Origin: a virus
Taxonomy: Duplodnaviria; Heunggongvirae; Uroviricota; Caudoviricetes
IMG/VR virus record: IMGVR_UViG_2630968543_000002
DNA: 41,923 bases
Direction: 5' to 3' (one strand)
The notes beneath the pieces are model-generated. The model was not told where the DNA came from and ran no database searches. It worked only from the letters and a program-made list of their open reading frames with translations. A program made the translations under genes and the position numbers. Of the stretch, positions 8,318 through 35,411 are shown one piece after another (position 1 is the stretch's first letter; each line of letters begins with the position of its first letter).

Positions 8318-8364
8318 TAAAATATTCTAAACTCTATTGATTTCGTGTCTTATGTGGTTTTTAA

Positions 8365-8379
8365 TTACCTCAGGGGTAA
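8365..8379. promoter_or_regulatory. Perfect operator palindrome TTACC-TCAGG-GGTAA, 4 nt upstream of the 8383 start codon; TATGTGGTT motif 5 bp upstream (8351..8359)
   Basis: Direct reading. Confidence 0.55.
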
Positions 8380-8382
8380 ATT

Positions 8383-8730
8383 ATGAGAAAACAGATACAG
8401 GCTCTTGGTCGACTCAAAACAGGCCAGATGAACAAAACAGAATCTGCGTATTGCCAGCACCTTGAGATGCGTAAACGTGCAGGAGAAATCGTCTGGTATC
8501 GATTTGAGGGTATCAAGCTGCGGTTAGCTGACAACACGTTCTATACGCCCGATTTTGCTGTGATGCTCGCCACCGGCGAGATGGAGCTGCACGAAGTGAA
8601 AGGGGGATTCTGGACCGACGACGCCAGGGTGAAAACCAAAGTCGCCGCAGATCAGTATCCGTTCCGAATCATCGGGGTAACGGTTAAACCAAAGAAAGCA
8701 GGTGGTGGCTGGAACATCGAAGAGTTCTGA
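8383..8730 (+). CDS. PD-(D/E)XK nuclease-like protein (resembles DUF1064)
   Basis: 115-aa ORF with putative PD...E.K motif (YTPDFAVM...ELHEVKGG). Confidence 0.6.
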   Translation: MRKQIQALGRLKTGQMNKTESAYCQHLEMRKRAGEIVWYRFEGIKLRLADNTFYTPDFAVMLATGEMELHEVKGGFWTDDARVKTKVAADQYPFRIIGVTVKPKKAGGGWNIEEF

Positions 8731-8791
8731 ATCGACGATCTTTTTAGTTATCAATGTAATCAATAAGTTATGTGGATAAGCGAGGGTAAAG

Positions 8792-9424
8792 ATGGAAAGT
8801 AATATCAAAGGGTTAGTTGCCGCCGGGCATGAGATGGCTTCGGAACTGAAAGCAGAATGTGGTGCCGTTGATATGCGCAGTGTGGCAAAGCTGCTCAGCG
8901 ATTTGGCAACGCAACTGGAAGTGCAACTGGTGCGTGCTAATGTGCTGGCCGAAGACCAGCAGAAAGCGATTGAGTCAATTAAGCAGGCTGATTCGGCTGT
9001 TAAGTTGGCACACGAGAAGTTTTCGGCGCTGGCGGCGGAGAATGCGGGGCTGAAACATGCAATGGCTGTAACTCTTGAGCATGTGTCGGTCACGGATGCA
9101 GGGCAGGCCGGAGTTGCTGCAATGATTATCAACGATGCCCTGCACCACAGCGAAACTCCAGCCACCGATGCTTTTCTGGCTGAAATTCGTGCGGAGGCTC
9201 GCAACGAGGGGATTAACTATACCGCAAGCCGTCTTGCTGCTGCTTTCAACCACGGATTTATCAATAAGTCTTTACGTGAAGTTTTCGACGTTACACGCAT
9301 GATTCTGTCAGCGAAAGAAGAGTTGGCTAATGAACCGCACCCGATTGATGGCCTGTCCGGTGAATATGCGGAGAAATCCCTTGAAGAATGGGCGGAACAG
9401 ATTCGCAAAGGAGCTGACAAGTGA
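8792..9424 (+). CDS. Coiled-coil protein, paralogue A (possibly Ead/Ea22-like; unverified)
   Basis: 210-aa ORF; C-terminal about 90 aa (TPATDAFLAEIRAEARNEGINYTA...EEWAEQIRKGADK) paralogous to the C-terminus of 9840..10640; GAGGG Shine-Dalgarno. Confidence 0.6.
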   Translation: MESNIKGLVAAGHEMASELKAECGAVDMRSVAKLLSDLATQLEVQLVRANVLAEDQQKAIESIKQADSAVKLAHEKFSALAAENAGLKHAMAVTLEHVSVTDAGQAGVAAMIINDALHHSETPATDAFLAEIRAEARNEGINYTASRLAAAFNHGFINKSLREVFDVTRMILSAKEELANEPHPIDGLSGEYAEKSLEEWAEQIRKGADK

Positions 9425-9831
9425 AGAAGATGATTTTTGTCGCGGCATTGTTGGTGAATATCCAACAAGTGCATGCTTCAGCAGCTATTGTAGCCTCTAC
9501 CGCCGCGACTACGGCTGCTGTAGCTGCTGCGAACTCTGCGAATATCGCAAACCAACAGGCACAGCGTGCTGCTAATGCATCAGCCAGCGTTCACTCAATC
9601 ACCATTAAGAGCAGTAAGCAAAATCTGGGATTCATAACGTGCGGCACGCGTTCTAATGAAGCTGTAGGTTCACTTGGATGTACGGTATATGGGGGTAGTG
9701 AGAATAGAGAAATTCCATGGAAAACGTGGCCCGGATACGTTCTTGGCTCGAAGCTCCCGGCCAGTTATGAAGTAAACGCCGTATCGTTTGATCACTATAA
9801 CGGCGTGGCAACGGTCTATTTTGCATATTGA
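9421..9831 (+). CDS. Secreted/periplasmic protein of unknown function (N-terminal signal peptide)
   Basis: GTG start overlapping the upstream stop (GTGA); MKKMIFVAALLVNIQQVHA signal-like N-terminus, then an Ala/Asn/Gln-rich segment. Confidence 0.6.
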   Translation: MKKMIFVAALLVNIQQVHASAAIVASTAATTAAVAAANSANIANQQAQRAANASASVHSITIKSSKQNLGFITCGTRSNEAVGSLGCTVYGGSENREIPWKTWPGYVLGSKLPASYEVNAVSFDHYNGVATVYFAY

Positions 9832-9839
9832 GGCTCCGC

Positions 9840-10640
9840 ATGAAATTCTCCAAATTTTCTGAGTTGGTGAATCGTATTTTGTTGAATCGTATTTTGTCCA
9901 ACAACCACAGCCATCGTCGCGATATGGATGTAACGATCGTTGTTCATTCGCCTGGCAGCATTGGTTCAACACCCTCAGTTGAGGTTCAGTCAATTCACGC
10001 TGGTTTTGATTGGGATTCCGGGAAAGTGCTGATTTTCCCAGCACAGCCACTGACCACGCTAACACCAGAACAGATTACTGATATTACTGATAGTGTGCGC
10101 AAAGGTCAGTCCTGGCACGCATATCAGGAATACAAGAAGCATCAAGAGCAGTTGGAAAAATTATCGATTGAACTTGATACCGCAAAACAGCGCATTGCAG
10201 AGCTGGAGGGTAATCGCGCGGCGCTGGCTGCGGAGAATGCGAGACTGAAGGCGATATGTGAGGATCGCCGCACGTTCATTATGAATGGCGTGCAGCTTGG
10301 TTTTATCAAGGTGCCAACAGTGGAAATAGATCCAGCTCTTGAAACAATTCGTATCGCCCTATCACCACAAAAAACCACTCCTGCGACCGACACTTTCCTG
10401 GATGAAGTGAAGACTGAAGCACGCAAGGAGGGCGCTTACTTTGTGGCGAATAGAATGCTGGCTGCCTGGGAAGCTGGTTTTATTGATGATACTGCGAAGA
10501 ACGCCGCGGATATTGCCCGGATGATTCTTACCTCTACTGAGTTTATGGCTAATGCGCGGGAAGGCGATTTTGACCGCTCATTCTCTGATGGTGTTCTCGA
10601 AGATATCGCTGAACAGCTTCGCAAAGGAGGCAGCCAGTGA
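9840..10640 (+). CDS. Coiled-coil protein, paralogue B (possibly Ead/Ea22-like; unverified)
   Basis: ATG at 9840 with GAGG upstream; C-terminus TPATDTFLDEVKTEARKEGAYFVA...EDIAEQLRKGGSQ aligns with paralogue A; shared ALAAENA(G/R)LK coiled-coil segment. Confidence 0.6.
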   Translation: MKFSKFSELVNRILLNRILSNNHSHRRDMDVTIVVHSPGSIGSTPSVEVQSIHAGFDWDSGKVLIFPAQPLTTLTPEQITDITDSVRKGQSWHAYQEYKKHQEQLEKLSIELDTAKQRIAELEGNRAALAAENARLKAICEDRRTFIMNGVQLGFIKVPTVEIDPALETIRIALSPQKTTPATDTFLDEVKTEARKEGAYFVANRMLAAWEAGFIDDTAKNAADIARMILTSTEFMANAREGDFDRSFSDGVLEDIAEQLRKGGSQ

Positions 10641-11140
10641 GCGAGCTTTACTATCAGACGTTACGTGAACGTTTTTCACCGAAACCAGCGCCTAAATGCT
10701 CTGTTTGTGGCGAGGAAATGTCAATACAGCGCATATCTGGAGCACATGTTGTTTATGCCTGTTCCGGTGAGGGTGATGACGGATATTTTAAGATAGGGCG
10801 TACTTTTGCAGACGAACATTATGAAAAATCACGCGTAACAGTAGTTGATGATAGTGATCCCGATGTGATTGCACTACTGGACGAACTGGAGGCAGCAAAA
10901 TCAAAACTCAACGAGCAGCGCGAGTATTACGAGGGAGTTATCTCTGATGGGTGCAAGCGTATTGCTGAACTGGAAGCGCGGGAAGTTCAATTACCGACTC
11001 GCTACGACCTTCGATATGGACACCCGATAAATGCAGATGAGCGACAAGTCATGATACCTAAAGAAAATGGCAGTTGGCTTTACCTGATTGACCTAGAACA
11101 CGCATTACGCGTCGCTGACATTCGCATCAAAGGAGAGTGA
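10637..11140 (+). CDS. Hypothetical protein with N-terminal Cys cluster (CSVCGEE...YAC)
   Basis: GTG start with AGGAGG upstream and GTGA overlap with the preceding stop. Confidence 0.55.
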   Translation: MSELYYQTLRERFSPKPAPKCSVCGEEMSIQRISGAHVVYACSGEGDDGYFKIGRTFADEHYEKSRVTVVDDSDPDVIALLDELEAAKSKLNEQREYYEGVISDGCKRIAELEAREVQLPTRYDLRYGHPINADERQVMIPKENGSWLYLIDLEHALRVADIRIKGE

Positions 11141-11141
11141 T

Positions 11142-11405
11142 ATGGCAACTTTGACAAAAAAAGAACAAGCATGGTTGAGCGAATTACAGGACGTTCTTGA
11201 TCGCTGCCCATCACCGAAAAAAATTGGTTTTTACACCATTGGCGATAAAAGCATTTACCTGTATGACCTGCGCCGCATGGATGAAATCATGGAGGCTCTT
11301 GATAATCGTTCGTCAATGGATTGGTGTGTTGCTGTTCATGATATGAATGCCGGATTTGATGAAAAGATTTTATTCCCCTCATCAGTTGAAAGTACAGCAG
11401 GATAA
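11142..11405 (+). CDS. Hypothetical protein (87 aa)
   Basis: ORF starts 1 nt after the upstream stop. Confidence 0.5.
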   Translation: MATLTKKEQAWLSELQDVLDRCPSPKKIGFYTIGDKSIYLYDLRRMDEIMEALDNRSSMDWCVAVHDMNAGFDEKILFPSSVESTAG

Positions 11406-11415
11406 GGACTAACAC

Positions 11416-12153
11416 ATGACCACTATTACCAAAGAGCGACTGCTGACAATCAGGCAGTGGCGCGAAACATACGGACCTGGTAGCAACGTTGTACTGCCAG
11501 CAGAAGAAGCGGAAGAACTGGCACGAATTGCTCTGGCATCGCTGGAAGCAGAGCCGATAGGTTTCCGTTGCAGGCGCAATGATAACCTTGGTGATTGGAG
11601 TTACGTATATCATCGAGAGCCAGATGATTTTGAGCGCAAACATTTAGTGATAGAGGGCATTTACGCCGCCCCTCCAGCACCGGTAGTGCCTGAAGAAGCA
11701 ACTCCGGAAAACGTAGAAATGCTCTCTGGCTATGTTTCAACGTACAAATTAACCGATAGCGAGCGCGATATTGCTGCCGAAATATGGAACGCCTGCCGCG
11801 CCGCCATGCTTCAGTCCGGAAACTTTCGGGAAAATAAGGATTCGTCAACCAATAATTTTCGGGAAACCTCGGAAACGTCAACCAACTCTCCGGTAACTCC
11901 GGATGGTTGGGTTATGGTGCCGAAGAAACTAACCGCTGAGAACGGCGCTAAGGGTGTGCTATCCGGTGAATTTTCAGAAACTACGTTTATAAGCTGCCCG
12001 GAATGCTTTGGCGATGATGATTGCGATACCTGTGACGGGAGCGGACGAATTGAAATTAAAGTACCAGTCACGTGGACGACCATAAAATCCATCTGGGATA
12101 AAGGTATTGCGCATTTTGCAGCAAAACCGCCGCAGGAGGTTAACCGTGGCTAA
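11416..12153 (+). CDS. Hypothetical protein with C-terminal zinc-finger-like motif (CPECFGDDDCDTCDGSG) and short internal repeats
   Basis: 245-aa ORF; GGA Shine-Dalgarno-like sequence upstream. Confidence 0.55.
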   Translation: MTTITKERLLTIRQWRETYGPGSNVVLPAEEAEELARIALASLEAEPIGFRCRRNDNLGDWSYVYHREPDDFERKHLVIEGIYAAPPAPVVPEEATPENVEMLSGYVSTYKLTDSERDIAAEIWNACRAAMLQSGNFRENKDSSTNNFRETSETSTNSPVTPDGWVMVPKKLTAENGAKGVLSGEFSETTFISCPECFGDDDCDTCDGSGRIEIKVPVTWTTIKSIWDKGIAHFAAKPPQEVNRG

Positions 12154-12427
12154 CCTGCAACTTGCCGTCAAAGGTGAATACTTCGATGCCATGATTCGCG
12201 GAGAGAAAACGGAAGAGTATCGCCTGTGTAATGACTACTGGAATAAGCGCCTCGTTAACCGTAAGTATGACCGCCTGATTATCACAAAGGGATATCCGAA
12301 GCGCGAAGACTTCAGTCGCAGAATTGACGTCCCGTATAACGGATATGAAATAAAAACAATCACACATCCACACTTCGGTGATAAACCGGTAAAGGTGTTC
12401 GCGATAAAGGTAAATATTGATGGCTAA
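12146..12427 (+). CDS. ASCH/PUA-like domain protein (resembles DUF3850)
   Basis: GTG start with AGGAGG 6 nt upstream; N-terminus LQLAVKGEYFDAMIRGEKTEEYR matches the ASCH-type pattern. Confidence 0.55.
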   Translation: MANLQLAVKGEYFDAMIRGEKTEEYRLCNDYWNKRLVNRKYDRLIITKGYPKREDFSRRIDVPYNGYEIKTITHPHFGDKPVKVFAIKVNIDG

Positions 12428-12758
12428 ATCAGCAGCAGAGCGCAAAGCCGCTCAGAGAGCCAGACAAGCTGCATCTGGTGTGCGTAAGCTGGAGATTGTG
12501 CTTGATGCTCAGGAAATTGAAATGCTTGAGCGTAACTGTGCCGCGCGTCGCCCCGGGCGTGCGCCTTACGAATTTGGTGAGTATATAGCGTTACTGATCC
12601 GCCAAGATGATGCACGCGTGCACGGGCGTATAAAATCGATCAGCAGAAAACGTTGCGGTAAGTGCGGCGAGAGAGTTCCTGTGAATTCATGCCCGTGTAA
12701 TGGTGACTCGCAATGCTGGGTGACTAAAGGCTGGCATGAAACGAAATTAATAGTGTGA
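12420..12758 (+). CDS. Hypothetical protein with C-terminal Cys cluster (CGKCGERVPVNSCPCNGDSQC); last gene before the late operon, possible late-gene regulator (inference)
   Basis: 112-aa ORF; its stop codon lies inside the GTGACATGTCAC palindrome. Confidence 0.5.
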   Translation: MAKSAAERKAAQRARQAASGVRKLEIVLDAQEIEMLERNCAARRPGRAPYEFGEYIALLIRQDDARVHGRIKSISRKRCGKCGERVPVNSCPCNGDSQCWVTKGWHETKLIV

Positions 12759-12766
12759 CATGTCAC
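12755..12766. repeat. Perfect 12-bp palindrome GTGACATGTCAC, copy 1 of 3
   Basis: Direct reading. Confidence 0.7.
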
Positions 12767-12807
12767 GAGTAGATTATGCATGATGAATTTGATGGGTTTT
12801 GAATACT

Positions 12808-12834
12808 GCCGCCAACTATGGCGGCTTTATTTTG
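12808..12834 (+). terminator. Rho-independent terminator between the early-right genes and the late operon
   Basis: GCCGCCA-ACTA-TGGCGGC hairpin followed by TTTATTTTG. Confidence 0.55.
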
Positions 12835-12844
12835 CATGGTACTA

Positions 12845-12877
12845 TTACCACAACGGTAACAATTACCAGGGTGGTTA
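12845..12877. promoter_or_regulatory. Late-operon control region: perfect site TTACC-ACAAC-GGTAA (12845..12859) preceded by TACTAT, plus degenerate site TTACC-AGGGT-GGTTA (12863..12877) ending 2 nt before the terS start
   Basis: Direct reading. Confidence 0.55.
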
Positions 12878-12879
12878 TA

Positions 12880-13473
12880 ATGCCTGCTGAACCTAAAACC
12901 TATAAACGCAAATCAACGCAATTTAAGCCGCTCACAGCAATGCAGGAGGCTTATTGCCAGTCATACATCAAAACGCCTGAAAACCAGACTCAGGCTGCGA
13001 TTAACGCAGGATTCTCCCCAAATACAGCGGCAGTTAAAGCCAGTGTTATGATGCGCGATGAACGCATTCAAAAACGGATTGCCGAGTTGATGGAGGAGCG
13101 CAACAAACGAATGCGCGTCAGTGCTGATTACGTTCTCATGCGCCTGGTGGAGATCGACCAGATGGACGTGATCGATATCCTCAACGACGATGGGAGCCTT
13201 AAACCAATCCGTGAGTGGCCGAAAATCTGGCGCACTACGCTTAGCGGCTTTGATCTGTCATCGACCATCATGAACATGAACGAGGACTCGATAGAGACAA
13301 TCCTCAAAAAAATTAAATGGCCTGACAAGGTGAAGAACCTAGAACTGATTGGTAAGCACGTCGACGTCAACGCATTCAAAGAACGCCTGGATGTTAATGT
13401 GAATGTGACAATTGCTGATCGCATAGCGGCAGCCAGGAAGCGACTCAAAGAACGTCAGGATGGTAATCAGTGA
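12880..13473 (+). CDS. terS: Terminase small subunit
   Basis: Position directly upstream of and overlapping the large terminase (GTGA); basic HTH-like N-terminus; ORF opens at 12799 but a terminator and operators occupy 12808..12877, so ATG 12880 is preferred. Confidence 0.65.
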   Translation: MPAEPKTYKRKSTQFKPLTAMQEAYCQSYIKTPENQTQAAINAGFSPNTAAVKASVMMRDERIQKRIAELMEERNKRMRVSADYVLMRLVEIDQMDVIDILNDDGSLKPIREWPKIWRTTLSGFDLSSTIMNMNEDSIETILKKIKWPDKVKNLELIGKHVDVNAFKERLDVNVNVTIADRIAAARKRLKERQDGNQ

Positions 13474-14945: not shown

Positions 14946-15019
14946 TCCGCTGGTGGGGATAATGTCGTTGATATCCTCTGATGAGGATAAAACAAAGCCA
15001 GCTCATCGGCTGGCTGTTT

Positions 15020-15031
15020 GTGACATGTCAC
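15020..15031. repeat. Perfect 12-bp palindrome GTGACATGTCAC, copy 2 of 3
   Basis: Direct reading; lies between convergent terL and the minus-strand ORF. Confidence 0.7.
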
Positions 15032-15035
15032 GGTG

Positions 15036-15455
15036 TTACTTAATGGCATTAAATCCAGCGTTGATGGCTTCCGCAATATTGATGGCTCTTGTTTTATCGA
15101 AGTGCCCATTCTGAATAAGCGTCGCATGCAGGCATTGTAACTTCATGTTGTATAAGTGTTCGCTCATGTAATCATGATCACTTTTTGCTTTAGCGTAAAC
15201 AGCGCGAGAAATATCAAACATATCGCCTTTTTCCATTTCAGAACGTTGTGCTGTTATCCAGTCATGGAACGTAACGCTAGTACCATGGTCTTCGCTAAGA
15301 GTTAACCCGGCCAGTCCCTCACTCTGAATTACTTCGTAATGCATTTCATTACCAGCAAAAACGCCATAAAAAACGCAGTCTTCAGCTTGAACGATACGAG
15401 AATATTTTAATGGCCATTCATTTAGATACTTAGCCAACATATCAATTGTTTTCAT
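15036..15455 (-). CDS. Hypothetical protein (139 aa) of unknown function, encoded opposite to the structural genes (moron-like)
   Basis: ORF with AAGGTGA Shine-Dalgarno 5 nt upstream; on the same strand and downstream of the phage tRNA; no recognisable motifs. Confidence 0.6.
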   Translation of the reverse strand: MKTIDMLAKYLNEWPLKYSRIVQAEDCVFYGVFAGNEMHYEVIQSEGLAGLTLSEDHGTSVTFHDWITAQRSEMEKGDMFDISRAVYAKAKSDHDYMSEHLYNMKLQCLHATLIQNGHFDKTRAINIAEAINAGFNAIK

Positions 15456-15466
15456 GATCTCACCTT

Positions 15467-15490
15467 AAAAAAATGCCCGGCGAACCGGGC
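15467..15490 (-). terminator. Rho-independent terminator between the tRNA and the minus-strand ORF
   Basis: GCCCGG-CGAA-CCGGGC hairpin followed on the minus strand by seven U (plus A-run 15467..15473). Confidence 0.6.
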
Positions 15491-15653
15491 GAACTGGAAG
15501 CAATGAGTTATGCCTTCCGTGGCTGTACGGGTTTACAGCATGAAGTCATCGCAATGGCGTCCTGCTGTAAAAAGGGCGGTGATAGTCCTTCAAGGGAAAC
15601 CATCACCGCCAAGCACCTGGAACTTCTGGCATCACGGTCCTTAGGCGTGATTC

Positions 15654-15730
15654 TGGCGCGGCATGCAGGATTCGAACCTGCGACCAACCGCTTAGAAGGC
15701 GGTTGCTCTGTCCAACTGAGCTAATGCCAC
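15654..15730 (-). tRNA. tRNA-Arg (anticodon UCU), phage-encoded, 77 nt with encoded CCA
   Basis: Manual fold: acceptor GUGGCAU/AUGCCGC, D-arm GCUC-AGUUGGACA-GAGC, anticodon stem ACCGC/GCGGU with loop CUUCUAA, T-arm GCAGG-UUCGAAU-CCUGC; close to, but distinct from, E. coli argU as recalled. Confidence 0.85.
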
Positions 15731-16052
15731 AACGCTGAGAGCACTTAGCCTGTTAAGGCGCCACACTTTGTCGCGGCTCCATAAATGCTCTCATCGTTGT
15801 ACCCTCGTCTCTTCCGAGGTGTCACACCGAATCGCCGGGATGGTGAATCCCCGTGCGCGGAATAAAACCGCTCGACTTGCACATTCCGGCTACCTGGTTC
15901 GTTTGCCCGAGCAAGGGAGGGTGCCCCTTAAACGTATCCAGACCGCTATCGGCGCATGTGCCATACGCCGTACTGCTCAAAATAAAAGCTCACCCCACCT
16001 GTTCAATTTAACGACAAGCCAGTCAGATTAGTAACTGGAGTGAATTCTTTGA

Positions 16053-16067
16053 TTACCTGAAAGGTAA
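16053..16067. promoter_or_regulatory. Perfect operator palindrome ATTACC-TGAAA-GGTAAT upstream of the portal operon; TATGTGGTT motif 44 bp downstream (16111..16119)
   Basis: Direct reading. Confidence 0.55.
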
Positions 16068-16157
16068 TAATTCGCGCATTAAATGTCAACTGTCTACGAT
16101 AAATAAATCATATGTGGTTAAATTGGTAATAATTTAATTGCGTACGGAGTCATTGAT

Positions 16158-16364: not shown

Positions 16365-16378
16365 CCGGAGTCATTGAA

Positions 16379-18351: not shown

Positions 18352-18353
18352 TC

Positions 18354-19049: not shown

Positions 19050-19057
19050 GAGAGGAA

Positions 19058-20050
19058 ATGACAATGGCTGTTAAAGGCTTAACTGCGCTAACGCTGGCTG
19101 ACTGGGGTAAGCGCGTCGATCCAGATGGGAAAGTCGATAAGATTATCGAGCTTCTCGGTCAAACTAACCCGATCCTTCAGGATATGCCTTTTGTCGAAGG
19201 TAACCTTCCTACCGGACACAAAACCACCATTCGTTCTGGTTTACCTTCAGCTACCTGGCGTTTGCTGAACTATGGCGTACAGCCAAGCAAATCAACCACA
19301 GTGCAGGTAACCGATTCCGTTGGCATGCTGGAAACCTATGCTGAAGTCGATAAGTCACTGGCTGATCTGAACGGTAATACCGCCGAATTCCGCCTGTCTG
19401 AAGACCGCGCATTTATTGAAGCGATGAATCAGCAGATGGCGCAGACGCTGTTTTATGGTGATTCCAGCGTTAACCCTCAGCAGTTTATGGGACTGTCCTC
19501 CCGCTATTCCAGCCTGTCTGCGGGTAATGCTCAGAACATCATTGATGCTGGTGGCACGGGTACAGATAACACCTCAATCTGGTTAGTGGTGTGGGGCGAA
19601 AACACCGTGCATGGCATCTTCCCGAAAGGGAAGAAGGCTGGCATCCAGATGGAAGATAAAGGCCAGGTGACACTGGAAGATGCTAATGGCGGCAAGTACG
19701 AAGGCTATCGCACCCATTACAAATGGGATAACGGACTTGCTCTGCGTGACTGGCGTTATGTTGTTCGCATTGCAAACATTGATGTCAGCAATCTTTCAGA
19801 ACCTTCCTCTGCCGCAAATATTGCGAAGTTGATGGTTAAAGCACTGCATCGCATTCCAAACCGTGGCATGGGCCGCCCGGTGTTCTACATGAACCGCACT
19901 GTAGGCCAGGCTCTTGATCTGCAGTCTCTGGAGAAAACATCTCTGGCGATTAGCGTAAAAGAGACTGAAGGCGAGTGGTGGACGTCATTCCGTGGTGTAC
20001 CAATCCGTGAAACTGATGCGCTTCTGGAAACAGAAGCCCGCGTGGTGTAA
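19058..20050 (+). CDS. Major capsid protein
   Basis: 330-aa ORF following the scaffold gene; GAGAGG Shine-Dalgarno; size and position typical of a T7-like or HK97-fold major capsid protein. Confidence 0.75.
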   Translation: MTMAVKGLTALTLADWGKRVDPDGKVDKIIELLGQTNPILQDMPFVEGNLPTGHKTTIRSGLPSATWRLLNYGVQPSKSTTVQVTDSVGMLETYAEVDKSLADLNGNTAEFRLSEDRAFIEAMNQQMAQTLFYGDSSVNPQQFMGLSSRYSSLSAGNAQNIIDAGGTGTDNTSIWLVVWGENTVHGIFPKGKKAGIQMEDKGQVTLEDANGGKYEGYRTHYKWDNGLALRDWRYVVRIANIDVSNLSEPSSAANIAKLMVKALHRIPNRGMGRPVFYMNRTVGQALDLQSLEKTSLAISVKETEGEWWTSFRGVPIRETDALLETEARVV

Positions 20051-20101
20051 CGCCTGTTATTAACCTGTGGGTCGCAACAGGCCCACTAATGGAGAAAGAA
20101 G

Positions 20102-20539: not shown

Positions 20540-20549
20540 GGTGATATTG

Positions 20550-24335: not shown

Positions 24336-24799
24336 TGATCGATGTTCAAATTATTCCCGCTACCGAAGAGCATCTTCAGATGATTTTGCCGGATGTTCGT
24401 CAGGCTGATATTGACGAACTGTATGCGGTATCGCTGATGACTACCGAAGATGCGCTGCGCGTTGGTCTGCGCACTGCGACTATGGCCTGGTCAGGATTTG
24501 CGAACGGAGAACTAGTAACCATGTTTGGCGTATCTCCGGCGTCAATGATCGGTGGAAATGGTACGCCCTGGCTGGTCGGTACCAGCCGTATTGAAAAATA
24601 TCAGAAGACATTTCTTCGCCACTGCCGACCTGTATTGCAGCAGATGCTGGCAGTTTATCCGCGCCTGGAAAACTATGTCGACGAGCGAAACCATGTTGCC
24701 AAAGCATGGCTGCACTGGCTTGGATTCAGGCTTGAAGAATCCGCGCCTTATGGTGCTCTTGGTCTTAATTTCCACAGATTTCACATGGAGAGAAAATAA
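24335..24799 (+). CDS. Virion-associated protein (gp13 position)
   Basis: 154-aa ORF; TGATG overlap with the upstream gene. Confidence 0.5.
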   Translation: MIDVQIIPATEEHLQMILPDVRQADIDELYAVSLMTTEDALRVGLRTATMAWSGFANGELVTMFGVSPASMIGGNGTPWLVGTSRIEKYQKTFLRHCRPVLQQMLAVYPRLENYVDERNHVAKAWLHWLGFRLEESAPYGALGLNFHRFHMERK

Positions 24800-29656: not shown

Positions 29657-29661
29657 ATTAA

Positions 29662-32136
29662 ATGAGACAGGAATGTATACAAGCGGTCCAGCAGGCGGCG
29701 CAGCGCACGTTAACGGCGCGAGAAATACAGAACATTGAAGACCGCATTTATCGAAATATGCGCTCCATTGCTCGTGATGACCCGATGTCGTGGAGACAAC
29801 TTTCCGAATCAGAGCGGCTATATCGTGCAGCACAATTGGCATCTGAAGAATTACAGCGAGAAGCGGCATTAAAGAAACGTCGTGTGGCCCTCACTATATC
29901 CGCACGTCAGAGATTGGATAAATTTATCAATAGCTATCAAGGGGCTGATGGGAAACTTGGCGCTCTTAACCGTACTATTGCTTTTAATGCAGACGGTAAA
30001 TCGAATTTCCTCTCTGTTGAGTCCAGAACAAAAGCCACTCGTGATTATGCATTGAGTCAATTGCAAGAGGCATTTGAAGCAGTTGATCCTCGCTTTTTTG
30101 GCCTGTTTGAAGATGAAGCTGGCGTGCGTGACCTGGTATATGAAATGCGAGGGCAAAATACTGGCAATGCTAAAGCAAGAAAAGGTGCTAAGGCGTGGAG
30201 AGAAGTGACAGATCTACTGCGCCGCCGGTTTAATGATGCTGGTGGGGACATTGGCTATCTCGAAAACTGGGGAATCCCTCAACATCATTCTATGGAAAAG
30301 GTTGGGGCGGTATCAAAGGATAAGTGGGTTAGCGATGTTATAGGTAAGCTGGATCGCAAATATTATATCCGAGCCGATGGACAACTGATGAACGATTCCG
30401 AGTTGTCTGCATTTCTTGGAGAGGCTTATAACACGATCGCTACTGGTGGGCTGAATAAGCTTACTGATACCGGAATGCGAATTTCAGGCGCACGTGCTAA
30501 CCGTGGTAATACATCACGACAGATACATTTCAAAGATGCAGATTCCTATCTGCAATATCAGCAACTTTATGGCGATCGCTCTCTATGGGAAATCATGGTC
30601 GGTCACCTGGAAGGTATCAGTAAAGATATTGCACTGGTGGAAACATATGGCCCAAACCCCGATCATGTTTTCCGCTCTCTTCTTGATCAGGTGAAGGCAG
30701 AAACGGCAACAGCTAACCCGAGTAAAACCGGTAAAGTCGAGCGGCTGGCGAACAATACAGAGAATCTGTACAACTTTATTTCCGGAAAGACACAGCCTGT
30801 AGCGAATCCGCACATCGCGCGATGGTCTGACAATATCCGCAACTGGCTGGTTGCCAGCAGACTCGGATCCGCGTTGCTGTCATCGTTCTCTGATCTTGGA
30901 ACCATGTATCTGTCTGCGAAGGTGACCAACCTTCCAATGAACCAGTTATTCCGCAACCAGCTTGAAGCTATGGACCCAACGAACCGTACAGAACTTGCGC
31001 GGGCGCGCCGCGCTGGTCTGGCGATGGAATCTCTACTTGGCAGCGTTAACCGCTGGGCGATGGATAATATGGGGCCGTCTGTGTCTCGTTGGGCTGCAAC
31101 GGCGGTAATGCGTGCCAGTGGGCTTACAGCATGGTCAGATGCGCACAAGCGCGCCTATGGCGTAACCATGATGGGAAGCTTGGGAGAAGTAGTGTCACGG
31201 ACACCAGACCTTCGTAGCCTCGATGATTCTGATTTTCGCATCCTGAAAAGCAAAGGGATTACTGACACAGACTGGAGCGTATGGAAGCTGGCGCAACAGG
31301 AGGACTGGGGGAACGGCAATAATACGATGCTGACACCGGAAAGCATTATGCGTATCCCTGATTCAGCAGTTAAACATCTTGGTGAGCCTGAACGCGTGAA
31401 ATTTGAGGCAATGCGTAAACTGCTCGGTGCCATAACTGAAGAAGTTGATATGGCTGTTATTACACCGGGAGCACGTGAGCAACTGATAACCGGTTCTGGT
31501 ATTCAGCGTGGAACATGGAAAGGTGAATTAACGAGAAGTGTTTTCCTGTTTAAATCGTTCCCTATCTCGGTGGTTATGCGTCACTGGTCACGCGCTATGG
31601 GTATGCCGTCTGCTGGTGGGCGTGCGGCATATATTGCGACGTTTATTGCCAGTACGACCATTCTTGGCGCTTTGTCGCAGCAACTTAACGACCTTGCGTC
31701 TGGTCGTAATCCTCGCGAGATGACAGGAGAAGATGCTGCTAAATTTTGGCTTGGTGCTCTACTGAAAGGTGGTGGTCTTGGCCTTTACGGTGACTTTTTA
31801 TTGTCAGATCACACTAGGTACGGAAGCGGCGCGCTGGCGTCGATGCTTGGCCCGGTAGCTGGTCTGGTTGATGACGTAGTGAAGATTGCTCAGGGCATAC
31901 CGTTAAATGCTGTGGAAGGGAAGAGTGAGCAGACTGGTGGTGATCTGGTTAAGCTGGGGAAAGGTCTGATGCCAGGTGCGAATCTCTGGTACTTGAAGGC
32001 GGCTCTCGATCACATGATCTTTAACCAGATGCAGGAGTATTTTTCACCAGGTTATTTGCGTAAAATGGAGCAACGTTCGAAGAAAGAGTTTAACCAGACA
32101 TACTGGTGGCGACCACAGGATGTCACTCCGCAATAA
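29662..32136 (+). CDS. Internal virion / ejection protein (gp16-like, part 2)
   Basis: 824-aa ORF; last gene of the core-protein operon. Confidence 0.55.
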   Translation: MRQECIQAVQQAAQRTLTAREIQNIEDRIYRNMRSIARDDPMSWRQLSESERLYRAAQLASEELQREAALKKRRVALTISARQRLDKFINSYQGADGKLGALNRTIAFNADGKSNFLSVESRTKATRDYALSQLQEAFEAVDPRFFGLFEDEAGVRDLVYEMRGQNTGNAKARKGAKAWREVTDLLRRRFNDAGGDIGYLENWGIPQHHSMEKVGAVSKDKWVSDVIGKLDRKYYIRADGQLMNDSELSAFLGEAYNTIATGGLNKLTDTGMRISGARANRGNTSRQIHFKDADSYLQYQQLYGDRSLWEIMVGHLEGISKDIALVETYGPNPDHVFRSLLDQVKAETATANPSKTGKVERLANNTENLYNFISGKTQPVANPHIARWSDNIRNWLVASRLGSALLSSFSDLGTMYLSAKVTNLPMNQLFRNQLEAMDPTNRTELARARRAGLAMESLLGSVNRWAMDNMGPSVSRWAATAVMRASGLTAWSDAHKRAYGVTMMGSLGEVVSRTPDLRSLDDSDFRILKSKGITDTDWSVWKLAQQEDWGNGNNTMLTPESIMRIPDSAVKHLGEPERVKFEAMRKLLGAITEEVDMAVITPGAREQLITGSGIQRGTWKGELTRSVFLFKSFPISVVMRHWSRAMGMPSAGGRAAYIATFIASTTILGALSQQLNDLASGRNPREMTGEDAAKFWLGALLKGGGLGLYGDFLLSDHTRYGSGALASMLGPVAGLVDDVVKIAQGIPLNAVEGKSEQTGGDLVKLGKGLMPGANLWYLKAALDHMIFNQMQEYFSPGYLRKMEQRSKKEFNQTYWWRPQDVTPQ

Positions 32137-32145
32137 GGATGAGAA

Positions 32146-32286
32146 ATGATTGCTTTTATTCTTGTTGTGTTTGCGCTTGTTGCACTTGGCGTTATGAACC
32201 GTAAATGTATCATTGACGATGGCGAATTTGCTGTTGCAGTTATTTTGATATTATCTGGTGTAGCAGGGTACATAGGCTTGTCATAA
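32146..32286 (+). CDS. Small hydrophobic peptide (46 aa, two predicted membrane helices); not in the ORF track
   Basis: Hand translation MIAFILVVFALVALGVMNRKCIIDDGEFAVAVILILSGVAGYIGLS; AAGGATGAG 5 nt upstream; followed by palindrome and terminator. Confidence 0.35.
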   Translation: MIAFILVVFALVALGVMNRKCIIDDGEFAVAVILILSGVAGYIGLS

Positions 32287-32293
32287 CGTGAGC

Positions 32294-32305
32294 GTGACAT
32301 GTCAC
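32294..32305. repeat. Perfect 12-bp palindrome GTGACATGTCAC, copy 3 of 3
   Basis: Direct reading. Confidence 0.7.
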
Positions 32306-32330
32306 AGGCCGCTTTCGCGGCCTTGTTTTT
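32306..32330 (+). terminator. Rho-independent terminator ending the core-protein operon
   Basis: AGGCCGC-TTTC-GCGGCCT hairpin followed by TGTTTTT. Confidence 0.7.
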
Positions 32331-32370
32331 AACGAATGCCACCGCCGCCCGGACGGGAATCCGCAGACAC

Positions 32371-32391
32371 AAAAAAGCCCGCGGCGCGGGC
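32371..32391 (-). terminator. Rho-independent terminator for the minus-strand two-gene operon
   Basis: GCCCGC-GGC-GCGGGC hairpin followed on the minus strand by six U (plus A-run 32371..32376). Confidence 0.6.
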
Positions 32392-32831
32392 TATTCTTCT
32401 TCATCATAAAAAAGCGGATTGTCGTTTCCATCTGATGAAAGGAAAGGTATGTGTTCTCTTGAAAATCCAACAACGACAATTTCATTATCATTTTTTGCAT
32501 AATGAATGCATTCATTAGAATGCATTCCGCCGGGGTTGAAATTTAAGTTAATGGTATAATTCTTAAATGTGTTTGGATACCATGTTGGCCCACAATGATA
32601 ATGCCAATAATTCTCTTGCTCATAATTGTCTGAGCCGGGAATTTTATCATGGTTATCATCAACCCACGATGGCTTGTTTTTTCCAACAAGCGCCCTTCCA
32701 TTGGCAACATCTTCTAAAAACCTTTGTATGATTTTTATTTCATCGTCAGTAAGGAAAGGTCCGTCTACAGCGAAAGGGGTGTTGCTTTCCCCATTTAGAA
32801 AACTATTAGATATTCTAATGTTAAACTTCAA
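32391..32831 (-). CDS. Hypothetical protein (146 aa), acidic C-terminus, no recognisable domain; second gene of the accessory operon
   Basis: TTG start with AGGAG 6 nt upstream, 20 nt after the stop of the small upstream gene. Confidence 0.5.
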   Translation of the reverse strand: MKFNIRISNSFLNGESNTPFAVDGPFLTDDEIKIIQRFLEDVANGRALVGKNKPSWVDDNHDKIPGSDNYEQENYWHYHCGPTWYPNTFKNYTINLNFNPGGMHSNECIHYAKNDNEIVVVGFSREHIPFLSSDGNDNPLFYDEEE

Positions 32832-32851
32832 GACAAACTCCTAATGTGCTT

Positions 32852-33019
32852 CTATTTGGAGCGAAATGCCGCCTTGAAGTCGCTGAAAGATGTTCCTGTC
32901 TGGTAAACCATATCCTTGTCGCGCTCTTTGCTTGCGCGGCCAAGCATAACTTTTCCAATGACATCCCAGCATTGCTTGGCTTGTTCATTGTGCTGAGTAC
33001 GATTTTTCAACGCTGTCAT
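32852..33019 (-). CDS. Small hypothetical protein (55 aa); first gene of the accessory operon; not in the ORF track
   Basis: Hand translation MTALKNRTQHNEQAKQCWDVIGKVMLGRASKERDKDMVYQTGTSFSDFKAAFRSK; GGAGG 6 nt upstream. Confidence 0.5.
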   Translation of the reverse strand: MTALKNRTQHNEQAKQCWDVIGKVMLGRASKERDKDMVYQTGTSFSDFKAAFRSK

Positions 33020-33031
33020 ATCGCGCCTCCT

Positions 33032-33075
33032 TTACCTTTAAGGTAATAGTACGCTATTCACCCCCAGTCTGCAAT
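33032..33075 (-). promoter_or_regulatory. Sigma70-like promoter (-35 TTGCAG, 17-bp spacer, -10 TACTAT) with a perfect operator TTACC-TTAAA-GGTAA (33032..33046) overlapping the -10/+1
   Basis: Direct reading of the minus strand. Confidence 0.6.
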
Positions 33076-33119
33076 CTGTACAGAATTATTTAAAGGCACA
33101 TCCCTGTGCCGCCGTTCCG

Positions 33120-33812
33120 TCAGAAAAATCCTGCTTTATCGTTGATGTACTCCGCGTGGGTCTCGATATCACGCAGGCATTTGCTCACACCGACGATGTA
33201 GCAGAACATGGTGGTCAGCTCCGCCGCCGCGCCCGATACGTCGTGCCCGTCTTCCTGTAACTGGTTCAGCAGATTCATCAGCAGTGAGTTCTCCGTCAGG
33301 CCGAGAACACCAGACGGCGAGTGAATCAGACTGCGGTAGCCGGGCTTCAGTGGGGCGCTGTAGGTTTTGTTCTCTATCTTCATTGCCTGCATCACTGCTG
33401 ACGCCGTGGCGTTGGCAACCTGGTCGGCAACCATCTTTATGCGTTCTTCCTGCGGGAGCGAGTTTTTAATGTAGCTTCCGGTGCGGCGGATCTGAGGAAG
33501 AACCTCACCTGTAACCCATTCAAGAAATCTGAATGCTCTCGTTCCCTCTGTCATTGCCTCTTTGCAACGCAGAATAAGGATGTAGAGACCTGATTCTGAA
33601 ACGATGGATAGTTCTTGTATTCCACCAGGGGTCTGTATTGAATGCAGCCCCTTTTTGTTCCAGCCTTTTTTATCAAGTTTTCTCGCTTGTGTAACATCAA
33701 TATTCAAAGCATTGCACACATCTTTGGTGACAAACCAAGGTTCTCCGTCAATCATGAACATACGGATCTGGCAGGATGACTCAAAGGAAAAGATGGAAGG
33801 TTTGGTATTCAT
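33120..33812 (-). CDS. Bro-N domain protein / putative antirepressor (Ant-like)
   Basis: N-terminal Bro-N signature (IFSFESSCQIRMFMIDGEPWFVTKDVCNALNI); AAGGTGA 5 nt upstream of ATG 33812 (ORF opens at 33857 with TTG); C-terminal domain paralogous to gene 34959..35216. Confidence 0.75.
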   Translation of the reverse strand: MNTKPSIFSFESSCQIRMFMIDGEPWFVTKDVCNALNIDVTQARKLDKKGWNKKGLHSIQTPGGIQELSIVSESGLYILILRCKEAMTEGTRAFRFLEWVTGEVLPQIRRTGSYIKNSLPQEERIKMVADQVANATASAVMQAMKIENKTYSAPLKPGYRSLIHSPSGVLGLTENSLLMNLLNQLQEDGHDVSGAAAELTTMFCYIVGVSKCLRDIETHAEYINDKAGFF

Positions 33813-33966
33813 GGCGATCACCTTTGTAGTTAGGTTAATCACCACCGCTGAGACCAATCAGATGGTGGTGAACTGTGCAGAGTTGGTCTTACCGGCTACA
33901 AAGGAACCCGGCGCACCTTTCGGTGCCCCCACACAGCCCACCATAGAATAGGTGCGCTTTACACAT

Positions 33967-34080
33967 AAAAAAACCGCTTATGCGGCATATGTGCCTCTGT
34001 AGTAATCCGGGAGACCAATCCCGGCACTGGATTTTGCCAGTGCCCGATTACTATGGCACAAGAGGAGTGCGATGTAAATT
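33967..34080 (-). ncRNA. Candidate structured leader or small RNA upstream of the Bro-N gene (tentative)
   Basis: Minus-strand promoter (-35 TTGATT, 17-bp spacer, -10 TATCAT) abutting the operator at 34080..34094; two stable hairpins (34007..34024 and 34024..34043) and a short GC stem followed by seven U (33967..33985). Confidence 0.25.
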
Positions 34081-34094
34081 TACCGAAAAGGTAA
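34080..34094. promoter_or_regulatory. Perfect operator palindrome TTACC-GAAAA-GGTAA
   Basis: Direct reading. Confidence 0.55.
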
Positions 34095-34172
34095 TGATAA
34101 GCGCGAAAAAACATTAAAATCAACCGTATTTGGTTGATTGCGTTTAACGCTTGATCACCTGAAAGCAAGATA

Positions 34173-34187
34173 TTACCTTTAAGGTAA
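34173..34187. promoter_or_regulatory. Perfect operator palindrome ATTACC-TTTAA-GGTAAT preceded by AGATAT (-10-like), 21 nt upstream of the 34208 start codon
   Basis: Direct reading; core 15-mer identical to the site at 33032. Confidence 0.55.
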
Positions 34188-34207
34188 TGTTATTGTGAGG
34201 AAAAGCA

Positions 34208-34936
34208 ATGGAAGTTTTCTGGATAGTTGTTGGTGTGGTTGCGGTGATTATTTACGTTATCAACCAGAACAAGACTAAGATCTCTGATCGTACGGTCGTT
34301 AATCAGAACAAAACGATAAAGACCGAAGATGGGGAGATAACGATTAATCGTACACAGGTGATAGAGCACACATCTACTCAGTTTCAAAAAACTGGAGGTA
34401 ACGCTCCTGATATTTCCGTACCTCCTGCTTATGATAGTGCGGTAATCCAGACATATTATAAACAGCAGGAGTTAGCAAAAGAGAGGCAACTGATTCAGCC
34501 AAAGCCGTTTACAGCTGAGCTTCCACCTGGAGTGTCAACGCGTCCGGCATATCATGGAAGATTCCCTGGTGATGACATATCGTCTCAGTCATTTAAAAAA
34601 GCACCTCAGGCAGTATCAGAGCCAGCAAGAATATCTTCTGTATCGCCGCCAAAAGAAGAATCAGCTAACAGAGTTTCAAGCGGTAGCAAGCAGTGCTTGC
34701 GATGCAGAATAAACCTTCCATATGAAAAATTCAGGAAATCGTCAAAAAATCCGGATGGATTGACTAAGTGGTGTGCAAGGTGTCTCGATGGCCCAAAGAA
34801 TACACGTCATATGAAGTGGTGCCCAATTTGTAATGTCCGCAGAAAACGAACCAGCTTTTACCCTAATAATCAAAATGCGGACGGCTTAATGGCATGGTGC
34901 AAAACGTGCTGGGACGAGCACAAAGCGAAACGATAG
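34208..34936 (+). CDS. Membrane-anchored protein with two C-terminal zinc-ribbon-like repeats (unknown function)
   Basis: N-terminal hydrophobic helix (EVFWIVVGVVAVIIYVI); two repeats of C-x2-C-x16-17-DGL-x3-WC-x2-C; GAGG Shine-Dalgarno. Confidence 0.65.
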   Translation: MEVFWIVVGVVAVIIYVINQNKTKISDRTVVNQNKTIKTEDGEITINRTQVIEHTSTQFQKTGGNAPDISVPPAYDSAVIQTYYKQQELAKERQLIQPKPFTAELPPGVSTRPAYHGRFPGDDISSQSFKKAPQAVSEPARISSVSPPKEESANRVSSGSKQCLRCRINLPYEKFRKSSKNPDGLTKWCARCLDGPKNTRHMKWCPICNVRRKRTSFYPNNQNADGLMAWCKTCWDEHKAKR

Positions 34937-34952
34937 GCCGCTCTTGCGGCCT
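34937..34952. terminator. Hairpin between convergent genes (possible bidirectional terminator)
   Basis: GGCCGC-TCTT-GCGGCC followed by TTTAAATTT. Confidence 0.45.
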
Positions 34953-34958
34953 TTAAAT

Positions 34959-35216
34959 TTACCTGGTTTGTTTTCGTAATTGTTCGGCACAATAGTCGAG
35001 ATGTGTTTGCAGATCCTGCATAGACATCTGTGAGCTGGTGACGTAGTTAATCAGTGCAGTCAGTTCGGCAAGTGGGCCATCGACATTAAATCCATCCTTA
35101 TTGAGATCCCGGAGTAATTTCATCAAGTGCGATCCCTCCACCAGTGACCTGACGCCTCCCGGCGTGTGAATCCTTTCGGTAAATCCGTCTTCCAGTGGAT
35201 AGTGATACTGCTGCAT
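34959..35216 (-). CDS. Hypothetical protein (85 aa), paralogue of the C-terminal domain of the Bro-N protein
   Basis: ATG at 35216 with GGAG upstream; TERIHTPGGVRSLVEGSHLMKLLRDLNKDGFNVDGPLAELT aligns with RSLIHSPSGVLGLTENSLLMNLLNQLQEDGHDVSGAAAELT. Confidence 0.55.
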   Translation of the reverse strand: MQQYHYPLEDGFTERIHTPGGVRSLVEGSHLMKLLRDLNKDGFNVDGPLAELTALINYVTSSQMSMQDLQTHLDYCAEQLRKQTR

Positions 35217-35292
35217 CTTATCTTCTCCATGCAATAACTGTATATTTATACAGTAGCAAATAATTTGTTTGCTATCCAGCACGTTTTGCAAA

Positions 35293-35307
35293 TTACCTGA
35301 AAGGTAA
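35293..35307. promoter_or_regulatory. Perfect operator palindrome ATTACC-TGAAA-GGTAAT between divergent gene 34959..35216 and the tailspike; TATGTGGTT motif and a GGTAAT half-site follow at 35339..35358
   Basis: Direct reading. Confidence 0.55.
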
Positions 35308-35411
35308 TATCTATTAGTATTCACAGTATTTCTATCCATATGTGGTTTTTCAGGTAATAGAATAACCAGATATGCGGCGCAACGGGTGCTGCGACTATCT
35401 GGAGATTTAAC

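Follow-up and report, generated by a model that had tools for sequence, protein, structure and literature searches.

A conserved 14-bp dyad at fixed distances from Rep operators in phiV10/epsilon15-like phages, a possible regulator site of late promoters

The stretch of DNA analysed here (the window, 41,923 nucleotides, IMG/VR record IMGVR_UViG_2630968543_000002) is, by its sequence, a 41.9-kb phiV10/epsilon15-like prophage (genus Uetakevirus) of E. coli. This report deals with a 9-nucleotide word, TATGTGGTT, found ahead of several of its genes, with the 14-bp dyad to which this word belongs, and with the spacing between this dyad and the operators of the prophage repressor Rep. Most of the structural region is ~97% identical to that of phiV10, HEMP4, phiv142-3, and others, and identities of 75-81% are observed with Enterobacter phage Tyrion and Salmonella phages epsilon15 and SPN1S. 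The gene order is that of phiV10 and epsilon15. At the left end, the integrase is followed by a leftward early operon (methylase, PerC-like at 2089-2388, AlpA-like, and RecET genes), Rep, and a Cro-like gene. The middle part comprises the replication genes, a DUF1064/nin-like block, a small “transcriptional regulator” (p55), and the terminase, while the right part harbors a leftward tRNA-Arg, the gp3/portal/head/tail operon, antirepressor genes, the tailspike gene, and the lysis genes. Rep (5332..5916, minus strand) is a 194-residue repressor with two helix-turn-helix (HTH) domains, a clear homolog of SPC32H Rep with Pfam and PHROG matches. The Cro-like gp39 (76 residues; 6071..6301, plus strand) is the sole gene between the promoter PR and a strong terminator at 6323-6342. 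Terminators bracket and separate the transcription units throughout the window, and no N or Q homolog is found in the annotation of phiV10 or epsilon15.

The original prediction placed the 9-mer before three genes, and an exact-match search on both strands returns these three copies (8351-8359, 16111-16119, and 35339-35347, all on the plus strand) and no more, for 0.37 expected. Three copies alone are ordinary: 1 of 100 shuffles of the window reaches that number, 1,323 distinct 9-mers are present at least three times (~800 in Markov-1 simulations), and the 7-mer TATGTGG occurs at chance frequency (4 seen, 4.4 expected). It is the location of TATGTGGTT, intergenic in all cases, together with its conservation, that makes it non-random. 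Intergenic DNA represents 7.5% of the window, and 14 of the 9-mers with at least three copies are wholly intergenic, against 0.43 expected; the majority of these 14 are words of the Rep operator, TATGTGGTT being among the few others. Copy number inside coding DNA does not equal that outside it, none of the three exact copies being coding. When one mismatch at most is allowed, 8 of 15 copies are intergenic.

The 9-mer corresponds to positions 6-14 of a 14-bp imperfect dyad, AwyCATATrTGGTT, whose copy at the lysis promoter of phages phiV10 and Tyrion is the perfect palindrome AACCATATATGGTT. The promoter element first proposed is real, conserved, and embedded in promoters, although its extent has to be redrawn. 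Dyads with at most two mismatches to AACCATATATGGTT occur five times in the window (6377, 16106, 34122, 35334, and 38764), all intergenic, for 0.14 expected and in 0 of 100 shuffles, an enrichment of ~35-fold. All five match at 12 of 14 positions and lie on the plus strand. AATCATATGTGGTT (16106..16119, holding 16111-16119) precedes the gp3/portal (head) operon, and ATCCATATGTGGTT (35334..35347, holding 35339-35347) the tailspike gene. ATTCATATATGGTT (38764..38777), which the original prediction had not listed, precedes the lysis cassette (38838 onwards). AACCAAATCTGGTT (6377..6390) is located between the terminator of the cro-like gene and the replication genes, and AACCGTATTTGGTT (34122..34135) between two operators at 34079 and 34172. 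Two further copies are weaker. TGTCTTATGTGGTT (8346..8359, plus strand, holding 8351-8359), before the DUF1064/resolvase-like (PD-(D/E)XK-like) gene, is half-conserved: its right arm alone is kept in eight genomes, and its Tyrion ortholog is AACCGTATATGGAT. ATGCGTATTTGGTT (5218..5231, plus strand, 10 of 14) belongs to the leftward early (PL/OL) region, within the PL spacer on the minus strand; its Tyrion counterpart is ATCCATATATGGTT, and the epsilon15 lineage is devoid of it. Over the seven site classes, the information profile reads A1 w y C4 a T6 A7 T8 r T10 G11 G12 T13 T14, with a near-invariant right arm and a degenerate left arm.

With a weight matrix made only from epsilon15, SPN1S, 65FD, and Tyrion, the three highest-scoring sites of the window are the copies at the lysis (22.1 bits), tailspike (22.0 bits), and portal (20.9 bits) promoters, each above the best score (19.3 bits) of a null of 40 sequences. 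The late-promoter sites are thus recovered independently. The sites at 34122 (14.8 bits), 5218, and 6377 score lower, and the 8351 copy, being reduced to its right arm, scores below 9.3 bits. Scanning viral contigs with the exact 14-mer returned chiefly unrelated single matches and was uninformative.

The dyads share their intergenic regions with the Rep operators, which are already known. The operator, a 17-bp palindrome (ATTACC-N5-GGTAAT), has 15 matches with at most two mismatches in the window, against 1.1 expected. It is found before almost every transcription unit, flanks the repressor gene (two copies in OL and three in OR, by direct reading), and adjoins every dyad copy. The epsilon15 RefSeq record (NC_004775.2) marks the orthologous operators as “protein_bind: repressor, lysogeny” at 12-27, 2931-2947, 19895-19911, 32479-32632, and 35906-35922, and carries no annotation at the dyads (2985-2998, 19937-19950, 24748-24761, 33749-33762, and 35950-35963). 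Rep resembles SPC32H Rep (PDB ID: 5D50, E 4e-42), which a secondary account presents as a tetramer: it has two DNA-binding units, recognises palindromic operators, and is taken apart by an antirepressor (PMC9638917).

Operator ATTACCTGAAAGGTAAT is located 54 nt upstream of the portal dyad (16052..16068; annotated in epsilon15 at 2931-2947) and again 42 nt upstream of the tailspike dyad (35292..35308; annotated in epsilon15 at 19895-19911), where it abuts a divergent ant-like promoter. The DUF1064 unit possesses two operators: O1 (8302..8318; epsilon15 35906-35922), 44 nt upstream of the dyad, and O2 (8364..8380), 4 nt past it, which overlies the -10 and the likely start; 2 nt separate its end from the ATG at 8383. 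An operator with two mismatches, from the palindrome scan (6356..6372), is 4 nt upstream of the post-cro dyad, and that at 5197-5213 is likewise 4 nt from the 5218 dyad. At the portal and tailspike sites, TATGTGGTT is followed after 5 nt by GGTAAT, with TAATA beginning 7 nt past the motif, as first described. This GGTAAT belongs to a different element, being half of the known Rep operator. The portal half-site (16125..16130, plus strand), 5 nt past the dyad, overlaps candidate -10 hexamers, and the tailspike half-site (35353-35358) overlaps the candidate -10 TAGAAT (35358-35363), the two spanning 35353..35363 on the plus strand.

In six to eight genomes, each site class keeps one distance between the first base of the operator and that of the dyad: +21 (post-cro and OL), +42 (tailspike), +43, +44 (DUF1064), +45 (lysis), and +54 (portal). 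The +43 offset, that of the 34122 dyad, is also observed in phiV10 and Tyrion. Measured between centres, operator and dyad are 19.5, 40.5-43.5, or 52.5 bp apart, and no value deviates by more than 0.14 turn from 2, 4, or 5 helical turns (P about 5e-4 to 2e-3), a phasing that is suggestive only, because the test was picked after the data had been seen.

Dyad and operator are found in the same intergenic regions of the same phage family, and share dyad symmetry and an ACC...GGT skeleton. They differ in that the dyad is 14 bp long, with arms AwyCA and TGGTT and a conserved centre of the 6-bp type (CATATrTG), whereas the operator is 17 bp long with a free 5-bp centre; the base before ACC differs as well. 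No dyad is among the operator matches at up to two mismatches, and OR and the terS region, rich in operators, lack dyads. Alongside the Rep operator, the dyad would constitute a second type of site for a protein in phages of the epsilon15/phiV10 group.

The sites are kept in place in epsilon15, SPN1S, 65FD, Tyrion, BUCT554, and a Klebsiella phage, as well as in 7 of 8 aligned prophages of other enterobacterial genera. As all 80 loci retrieved with the gp3 protein were 99-100% identical, offering no useful diversity, a portal-profile scan of species-representative genomes was used instead. The portal upstream alignment comprises 12 sources, four phages and eight prophages of other genera, with portal proteins ~80% identical. 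In 11 of them (the Providencia prophage being the exception), a conserved operator is followed by ~14 variable nt, by GTCAA, and by a near-invariant block of ~50 nt, CTACGCTAAATAAnnCATATGTGGTTAAATTGGTAATAATTTAAT, which contains the dyad; conservation then collapses until the ribosome-binding site. GGTAATAATTTAAT, the region of the portal GGTAAT half-site, is invariant in 11 of 12 orthologs, with conservation collapsing directly after it, and GTCAA (TTGACA on the opposite strand) in 12 of 12. In the tailspike region, the core CATAT..GGTT is invariant in seven genomes, while the 25 nt between core and operator diverge. The same holds in the tailspike, lysis, post-cro, and DUF1064 alignments, where the dyad core stays constant next to divergent DNA; the adjacent -10-like hexamer, like the dyad, remains constant amid diverging flanks. 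In the Providencia alcalifaciens prophage (L091, 1112-1292; portal 66% identical), GTCAA is kept upstream of the portal operon, and neither Rep palindrome nor dyad is found in that region. This lineage could act as a natural swap experiment matching regulators to sites.

Positions relative to the -10 and -35 elements are estimates, these hexamers being assigned from sequence. At the late promoters, the dyad would occupy the -35/upstream spacer region, with a centre at about -27 to -33. At the tailspike promoter, the dyad is followed by 5 nt, an invariant GGTAATA, and a hexamer 10 nt past the dyad (TAGAAT, TACAAT, or TAAACT across seven genomes), after which conservation ends. At the lysis promoter, TATGAT (TATAAT in phiV10) is found 7 nt past the dyad; the window has TACTAT directly after the dyad instead. 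The portal candidates are AATAAT (16128-16133), TAATTT (16130-16135), and TTTAAT (16133-16138), 8-13 nt past the dyad. No TTGACA-like hexamer precedes the portal, tailspike, or lysis candidates by 16-18 nt. The hexamers 17 nt upstream (TCCATA for the tailspike; AAATCA, ATCATA, and ATATGT for the portal) match the consensus at no more than 3 of 6 positions, below the 4 of 6 taken as the criterion, and are not conserved as a -35. A consensus promoter scan, with a range that excluded the tailspike and lysis sites, found none at the portal site. The Rep operator is located ~40-52 bp further upstream, and is thus too far away to occlude the late promoters; it overlaps divergent leftward promoters instead.

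The other copies are embedded differently. The last two bases of the post-cro dyad begin an invariant promoter, TTGATC (6389-6394)-16/17-CAAAAT (6412-6417), with a spacer of 17 in the window, which puts the dyad centre at about -41. In the DUF1064 promoter, TTGATT (8337-8342)-17-TTTAAT (8360-8365), the dyad makes up the final 14 nt of the 17-nt spacer, and in the Tyrion lineage the PL dyad is placed likewise in a complete promoter. The proposal that the motif acts in place of a -35 hexamer is therefore compatible with the portal and tailspike copies but not with that at 8351, where the promoter has both hexamers. More generally, a -35-replacing activator site fits the sequence at the portal, tailspike, and lysis promoters, and does not fit the DUF1064 and PL copies.

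The best reading of these observations, though a tentative one, is that a dimeric regulator of the phage, for which gp39 is the leading candidate, binds the dyad and activates the late units. A small phage-encoded HTH dimer would bind the dyad, the best candidate being gp39, the sole product of the first rightward unit after Rep removal. The bound regulator would then recruit RNA polymerase at the head (portal), tailspike, and lysis promoters, which lack a -35, and thereby switch on terminator-insulated late units in a phage without an N- or Q-type antiterminator. The same protein might modulate or repress the early units by position, from about -41 at the post-cro site and from the spacers at the DUF1064 and PL sites. 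A broader and rather unlikely version is a two-site code, in which Rep operators and dyads are set at integral helical turns and gp39 is a master switch and not a classical Cro, activating late promoters and tuning or repressing early ones. If true, such a code would replace the lambdoid N/Q antitermination cascade with a logic resembling that of restriction-modification controllers.

The AF2 model of gp39 (pLDDT 88) shows a five-helix lambda-repressor-like HTH, resembling YdaS/Cro, P22 c2, the 434 repressor, and restriction-modification controller proteins. Its HTH, including the helix TSHYIQTH, is invariant in all homologs and differs from that of the Rep N-terminal domain. On these grounds, gp39 would be the most economical dimer to read a 14-bp dyad. 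The Rep N-terminal domain is an unlikely reader, as the conserved centre and the different spacing of the dyad argue against it. The AlpA-family protein (PF05930; 2498..2746, minus strand) has no match among the P. aeruginosa AlpA chains of the PDB even at E 10, its sole match being 8C3T; with no similarity detected, the AlpA name is shared without homology. As for p55 (12420..12758, plus strand), annotated as “transcriptional regulator”, it was set aside as an unlikely binder since close homologs occur in genomes devoid of dyads: the lambda-like Chlobot (88% identical) and the myovirus ZF40 (64%) possess neither dyads nor operators above chance, and carry their own Q proteins. This 112-residue protein has no Pfam or PDB match; from reading of its sequence alone, it displays an RHH-like N-terminus and a Cys-rich C-terminus (CGKCG...CPCNGDSQCW). 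Its homologs are scattered (N15 gp46, phiKO2, ZF40 gp22, Chlobot, and many Vibrio and Aeromonas phages), and p55 appears, on that basis, to be a widespread putative regulator.

Several observations weigh against activation of the late units by gp39. The distance from dyad to -10 varies (0-1, 7, 8-13, and 10 nt), and the DUF1064 and Tyrion-lineage PL dyads are in the spacers of complete promoters, a repressor-type position. In phiV10, the lysis promoter combines a perfect TATAAT with a -35-like hexamer matching at 4 of 6 (TTAACC-17-TATAAT), and may thus not need an activator. No dyad is found at OR, upstream of gp39 (best match with five mismatches). Coupling to Rep would explain the strict spacing from its operators, and the helical phasing, at least as well. 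Finally, the Cro-like, AlpA-like, and PerC-like genes are each confined to ~36-37 phage records, almost all of which belong to these same Uetakeviruses (a Psychrobacter phage gives a weak, partial match to gp39 as well), and co-occurrence cannot single out gp39 because all three candidates co-occur with the dyad. Activation and repression by the dyad cannot be told apart from sequence.

Coupling to Rep is the main rival, one that accounts for the spacing and for the consistent overlap with core promoter elements, and it is possible, if somewhat doubtful, that the dyad is an auxiliary repression site bound in the lysogen by a second surface of the Rep tetramer, such as its C-terminal HTH, or by a partner. 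By this account, Rep held at a strong operator 20-52 bp from the dyad would extend to the core promoter and close it. The dyad indeed overlaps the -35 or the spacer of every promoter carrying one, the usual place of a repressor. The operator-dyad offset is fixed in six to eight genomes despite divergent DNA in between, with centre distances near 2, 4, or 5 helical turns by the post hoc test above, and at the post-cro, OL, and DUF1064 sites operator and dyad are each time 4 nt apart. A second HTH_3 domain is present in Rep (residues 106-147), and the tetramer is described with two DNA-binding units; however, the secondary account reports no DNA binding by the C-terminal domain (PMC9638917). Operators at about -70 cannot alone occlude the late promoters, and that of the phiV10 lysis cassette looks strong enough to need repression. 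Nevertheless, the dyad is unlike the operator (a conserved 6-bp against a free 5-bp centre, and another base before ACC), it is missing from OR and terS, and it matches best at precisely the three late promoters, which is what a late-promoter signature would do. An element within or beside the -35/-10 spacer, in a genome cut by intrinsic terminators and without N or Q homolog, also recalls the sites at which processive antiterminators are loaded, such as the Q-binding element of lambda and the AlpA-binding element of P. aeruginosa; a factor bound between -35 and -10 would join RNA polymerase and carry it through the numerous terminators. P. aeruginosa AlpA acts via an element between -35 and -10 (PMC7969949), and the window encodes an AlpA-family protein. 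This is improbable: that protein has no detectable relationship with P. aeruginosa AlpA, the portal, tailspike, and lysis promoters are not closely followed by a terminator (the hairpin of the tailspike leader lacks a U-tract), and the promoter-like region of each unit makes read-through unnecessary.

It is also quite unlikely that the dyad is a site for a host protein (IHF, Fis, DnaA, CRP) or a bendable TATA-like hinge of intrinsic flexibility that shapes the DNA between Rep sites. Its centre, CATATATG, is rich in flexible TA steps, Rep site pairs 62 bp apart would need sharp bending, the epsilon15 record predicts IHF sites beside some operators, and the 8768 copy is a perfect DnaA box. But none of the dyads is overlapped by an annotated IHF site of epsilon15, and when both strands of the sites are read directly, no fit is found to IHF (WATCAANNNNTTR), nor to the CRP, Fis, or sigma-54 consensus. 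Many family members (TATATGGTT, TATAAGGTT, and TATACGGTT) lack the TGTG required by a DnaA box, and the invariant flanking C4 and G11 G12 T13 T14 argue for base-specific reading. As to a functionless word, arising as a chance repeat or through shared ancestry of duplicated intergenic DNA, the 9-mer and 7-mer counts and the shuffles given above are what such a word would produce, but the intergenic location of all copies, their fixed positions across genera amid diverging flanks, the enrichment of the dyad, and the sites found with a matrix from other genomes make it extremely improbable, and chance is excluded.

The original prediction had also counted TTATGTGGA at 8768-8776 as a related copy. 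The word is present, but it does not belong to the family: it overlaps a perfect DnaA box (8771..8779, minus strand, TTATCCACA), lacks the invariant C4, carries an A in place of the near-invariant T13, and has no operator within 60 nt. The DnaA box TTATNCACA (reverse complement TGTGNATAA) is matched at 9 of 9 positions only at 8771-8779, while the exact TATGTGGTT copies reach 8 of 9 (portal, TGTGGTTAA) or at most 7 of 9. Moreover, the dyad left arm and the operator pairing are foreign to DnaA boxes, and the TGTG core is absent from the variants mentioned above. As a separate observation, one perfect DnaA box (TGTGGATAA on the plus strand) is found in each of the window, phiV10, epsilon15, SPN1S, and 65FD, before the eae-like gene in the first two and inside the replication protein gene in the other three (35625 in L002; 35583 in L004). 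Direct comparison rules out a sigma-54 promoter, a CRP site, an IHF site, an extended -10, and a variant Rep operator. An RNA-level role of the Rep palindrome or of the dyad appears unlikely, their stems being weak and the elements being located upstream of the likely start sites.

Activator-dependent late promoters are a familiar feature of phages, with the Ogr/B sites of P2 and 186 (TGT-N12-ACA at -55) and the C and Mor sites of Mu. Sites replacing the -35 are known from phage T4 (the MotA box at -30) and from lambda CII (TTGC-N6-TTGC around -35). As in these systems, separate late operons share a short dyad over or near the -35, a -10-like hexamer, and no -35. In contrast, the sequence is unrelated, the dyad centre is at about -27 to -33 and not at -55 or -43, weaker copies are found in promoters bearing a -35, and no Ogr-, Mor-, MotA-, or CII-like protein is found among the window proteins using Pfam and PHROG. 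Restriction-modification controllers are small HTH dimers structurally similar to gp39 that activate or repress depending on site location; C-boxes, however, consist of two adjacent dyads upstream of the controller's own gene, whereas the dyads here are single and none is found in OR upstream of gp39. Q-binding and P. aeruginosa AlpA elements are, like the dyad, embedded between -35 and -10 in terminator-segmented genomes (PMC7969949), but a Q homolog, a detectable relationship of the PF05930 protein, and an immediately downstream terminator are all missing here.

The dyad is thus a familiar kind of thing, a regulator site common to phage promoters, and not a new principle. It is not annotated in the epsilon15, phiV10, and Tyrion records, and the ZX5 paper contains no operator mapping. 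A literature search did not find the motif in a phage context, though the primary epsilon15/SPC32H papers were outside this search and may hold an earlier description. Work on the lysogeny switch of Uetakeviruses (epsilon15, phiV10, SPN1S/SPC32H) has dealt with Rep, Ant, and LexA, and no description of how the replication, head, tailspike, and lysis units are activated was found in the records or literature searched. By marking these units, the dyad provides a testable handle: a two-base mutation, or one small protein, should switch late expression. As Uetakeviruses serve in O157 and Salmonella detection and typing, this bears on reporter-phage engineering, on spontaneous induction, and on gene ordering in temperate phages without N/Q-type antiterminators.

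Some further features of the Rep operators deserve mention. Pairs 62 bp apart from centre to centre (~6 helical turns) are found at 5197/5259, 8302/8364, 16052 with the half-site at 16125, and 32554/32616 in L002, which fits one Rep tetramer bridging two sites. In OR, three operators are packed (5971-5987, 5988-6004, and 6019-6035), the last overlapping the predicted PR -35. Operators 8364-8380, 12862-12878, 33031-33047, and 34172-34188 end 1-19 nt before start codons (e.g., ATTACCTCAGGGGTAAAttATG, and ATTACCAGGGTGGTTATaATG at terS), and hence overlap ribosome-binding regions as well as promoters. The start codon of terS is probably the ATG at 12880 and not the annotated TTG (12799). Upstream of the portal operon, the minus-strand TTGACA (16084-16089), invariant in 12 of 12 sources, is separated by 17 nt from TACCTT (16061-16066, minus strand) within the Rep operator. 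This TTGACA-17-TACCTT is likely a Rep-controlled leftward promoter directed toward tRNA-Arg(tct) (15654..15730, minus strand) and a Sf6-gene-66-like moron ORF (15036..15455). The pattern TTGAnn-17-TACCTT in an operator recurs at 34172.

A near-consensus LexA box, AACTGTATATTTATACAGTA (35236-35255), is located ~20 nt upstream of a small leftward gene (34959..35216, minus strand). The encoded 85-residue protein matches the C-terminus of antirepressors (PHROG 450/1760), and would fit the LexA-controlled small Ant described for SPC32H-type phages. The ORF listed as 34959..35339 is over-extended, an in-frame ATG with a Shine-Dalgarno sequence being present at 35216. In the tailspike leader, a strong hairpin (35366-35402; -20.9 kcal/mol, z -4.6) reaches with its 3' arm the Shine-Dalgarno GGAG. 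A GC-rich hairpin is kept there in seven genomes despite differing sequences, and could act as an mRNA stabiliser or as a translation gate. A minus-strand “copy” of the 9-mer with one mismatch (35364-35372) overlaps its 5' arm.

In the replication region, six direct repeats of ~18-24 nt (6922-7074, core CCCAAAAACGGGA) are found within the DnaT-like replication initiator gene (6668..7483). By their sequence, they look like origin iterons; two of them were mis-scored as hairpins in the terminator scan. Another word of 9-10 nt, AACCCTCTGT (ACAGAGGGTT), has three copies, all intergenic: one just before the cro terminator (6313-6322), and an inverted pair near 40787-40810, downstream of the lysis genes.

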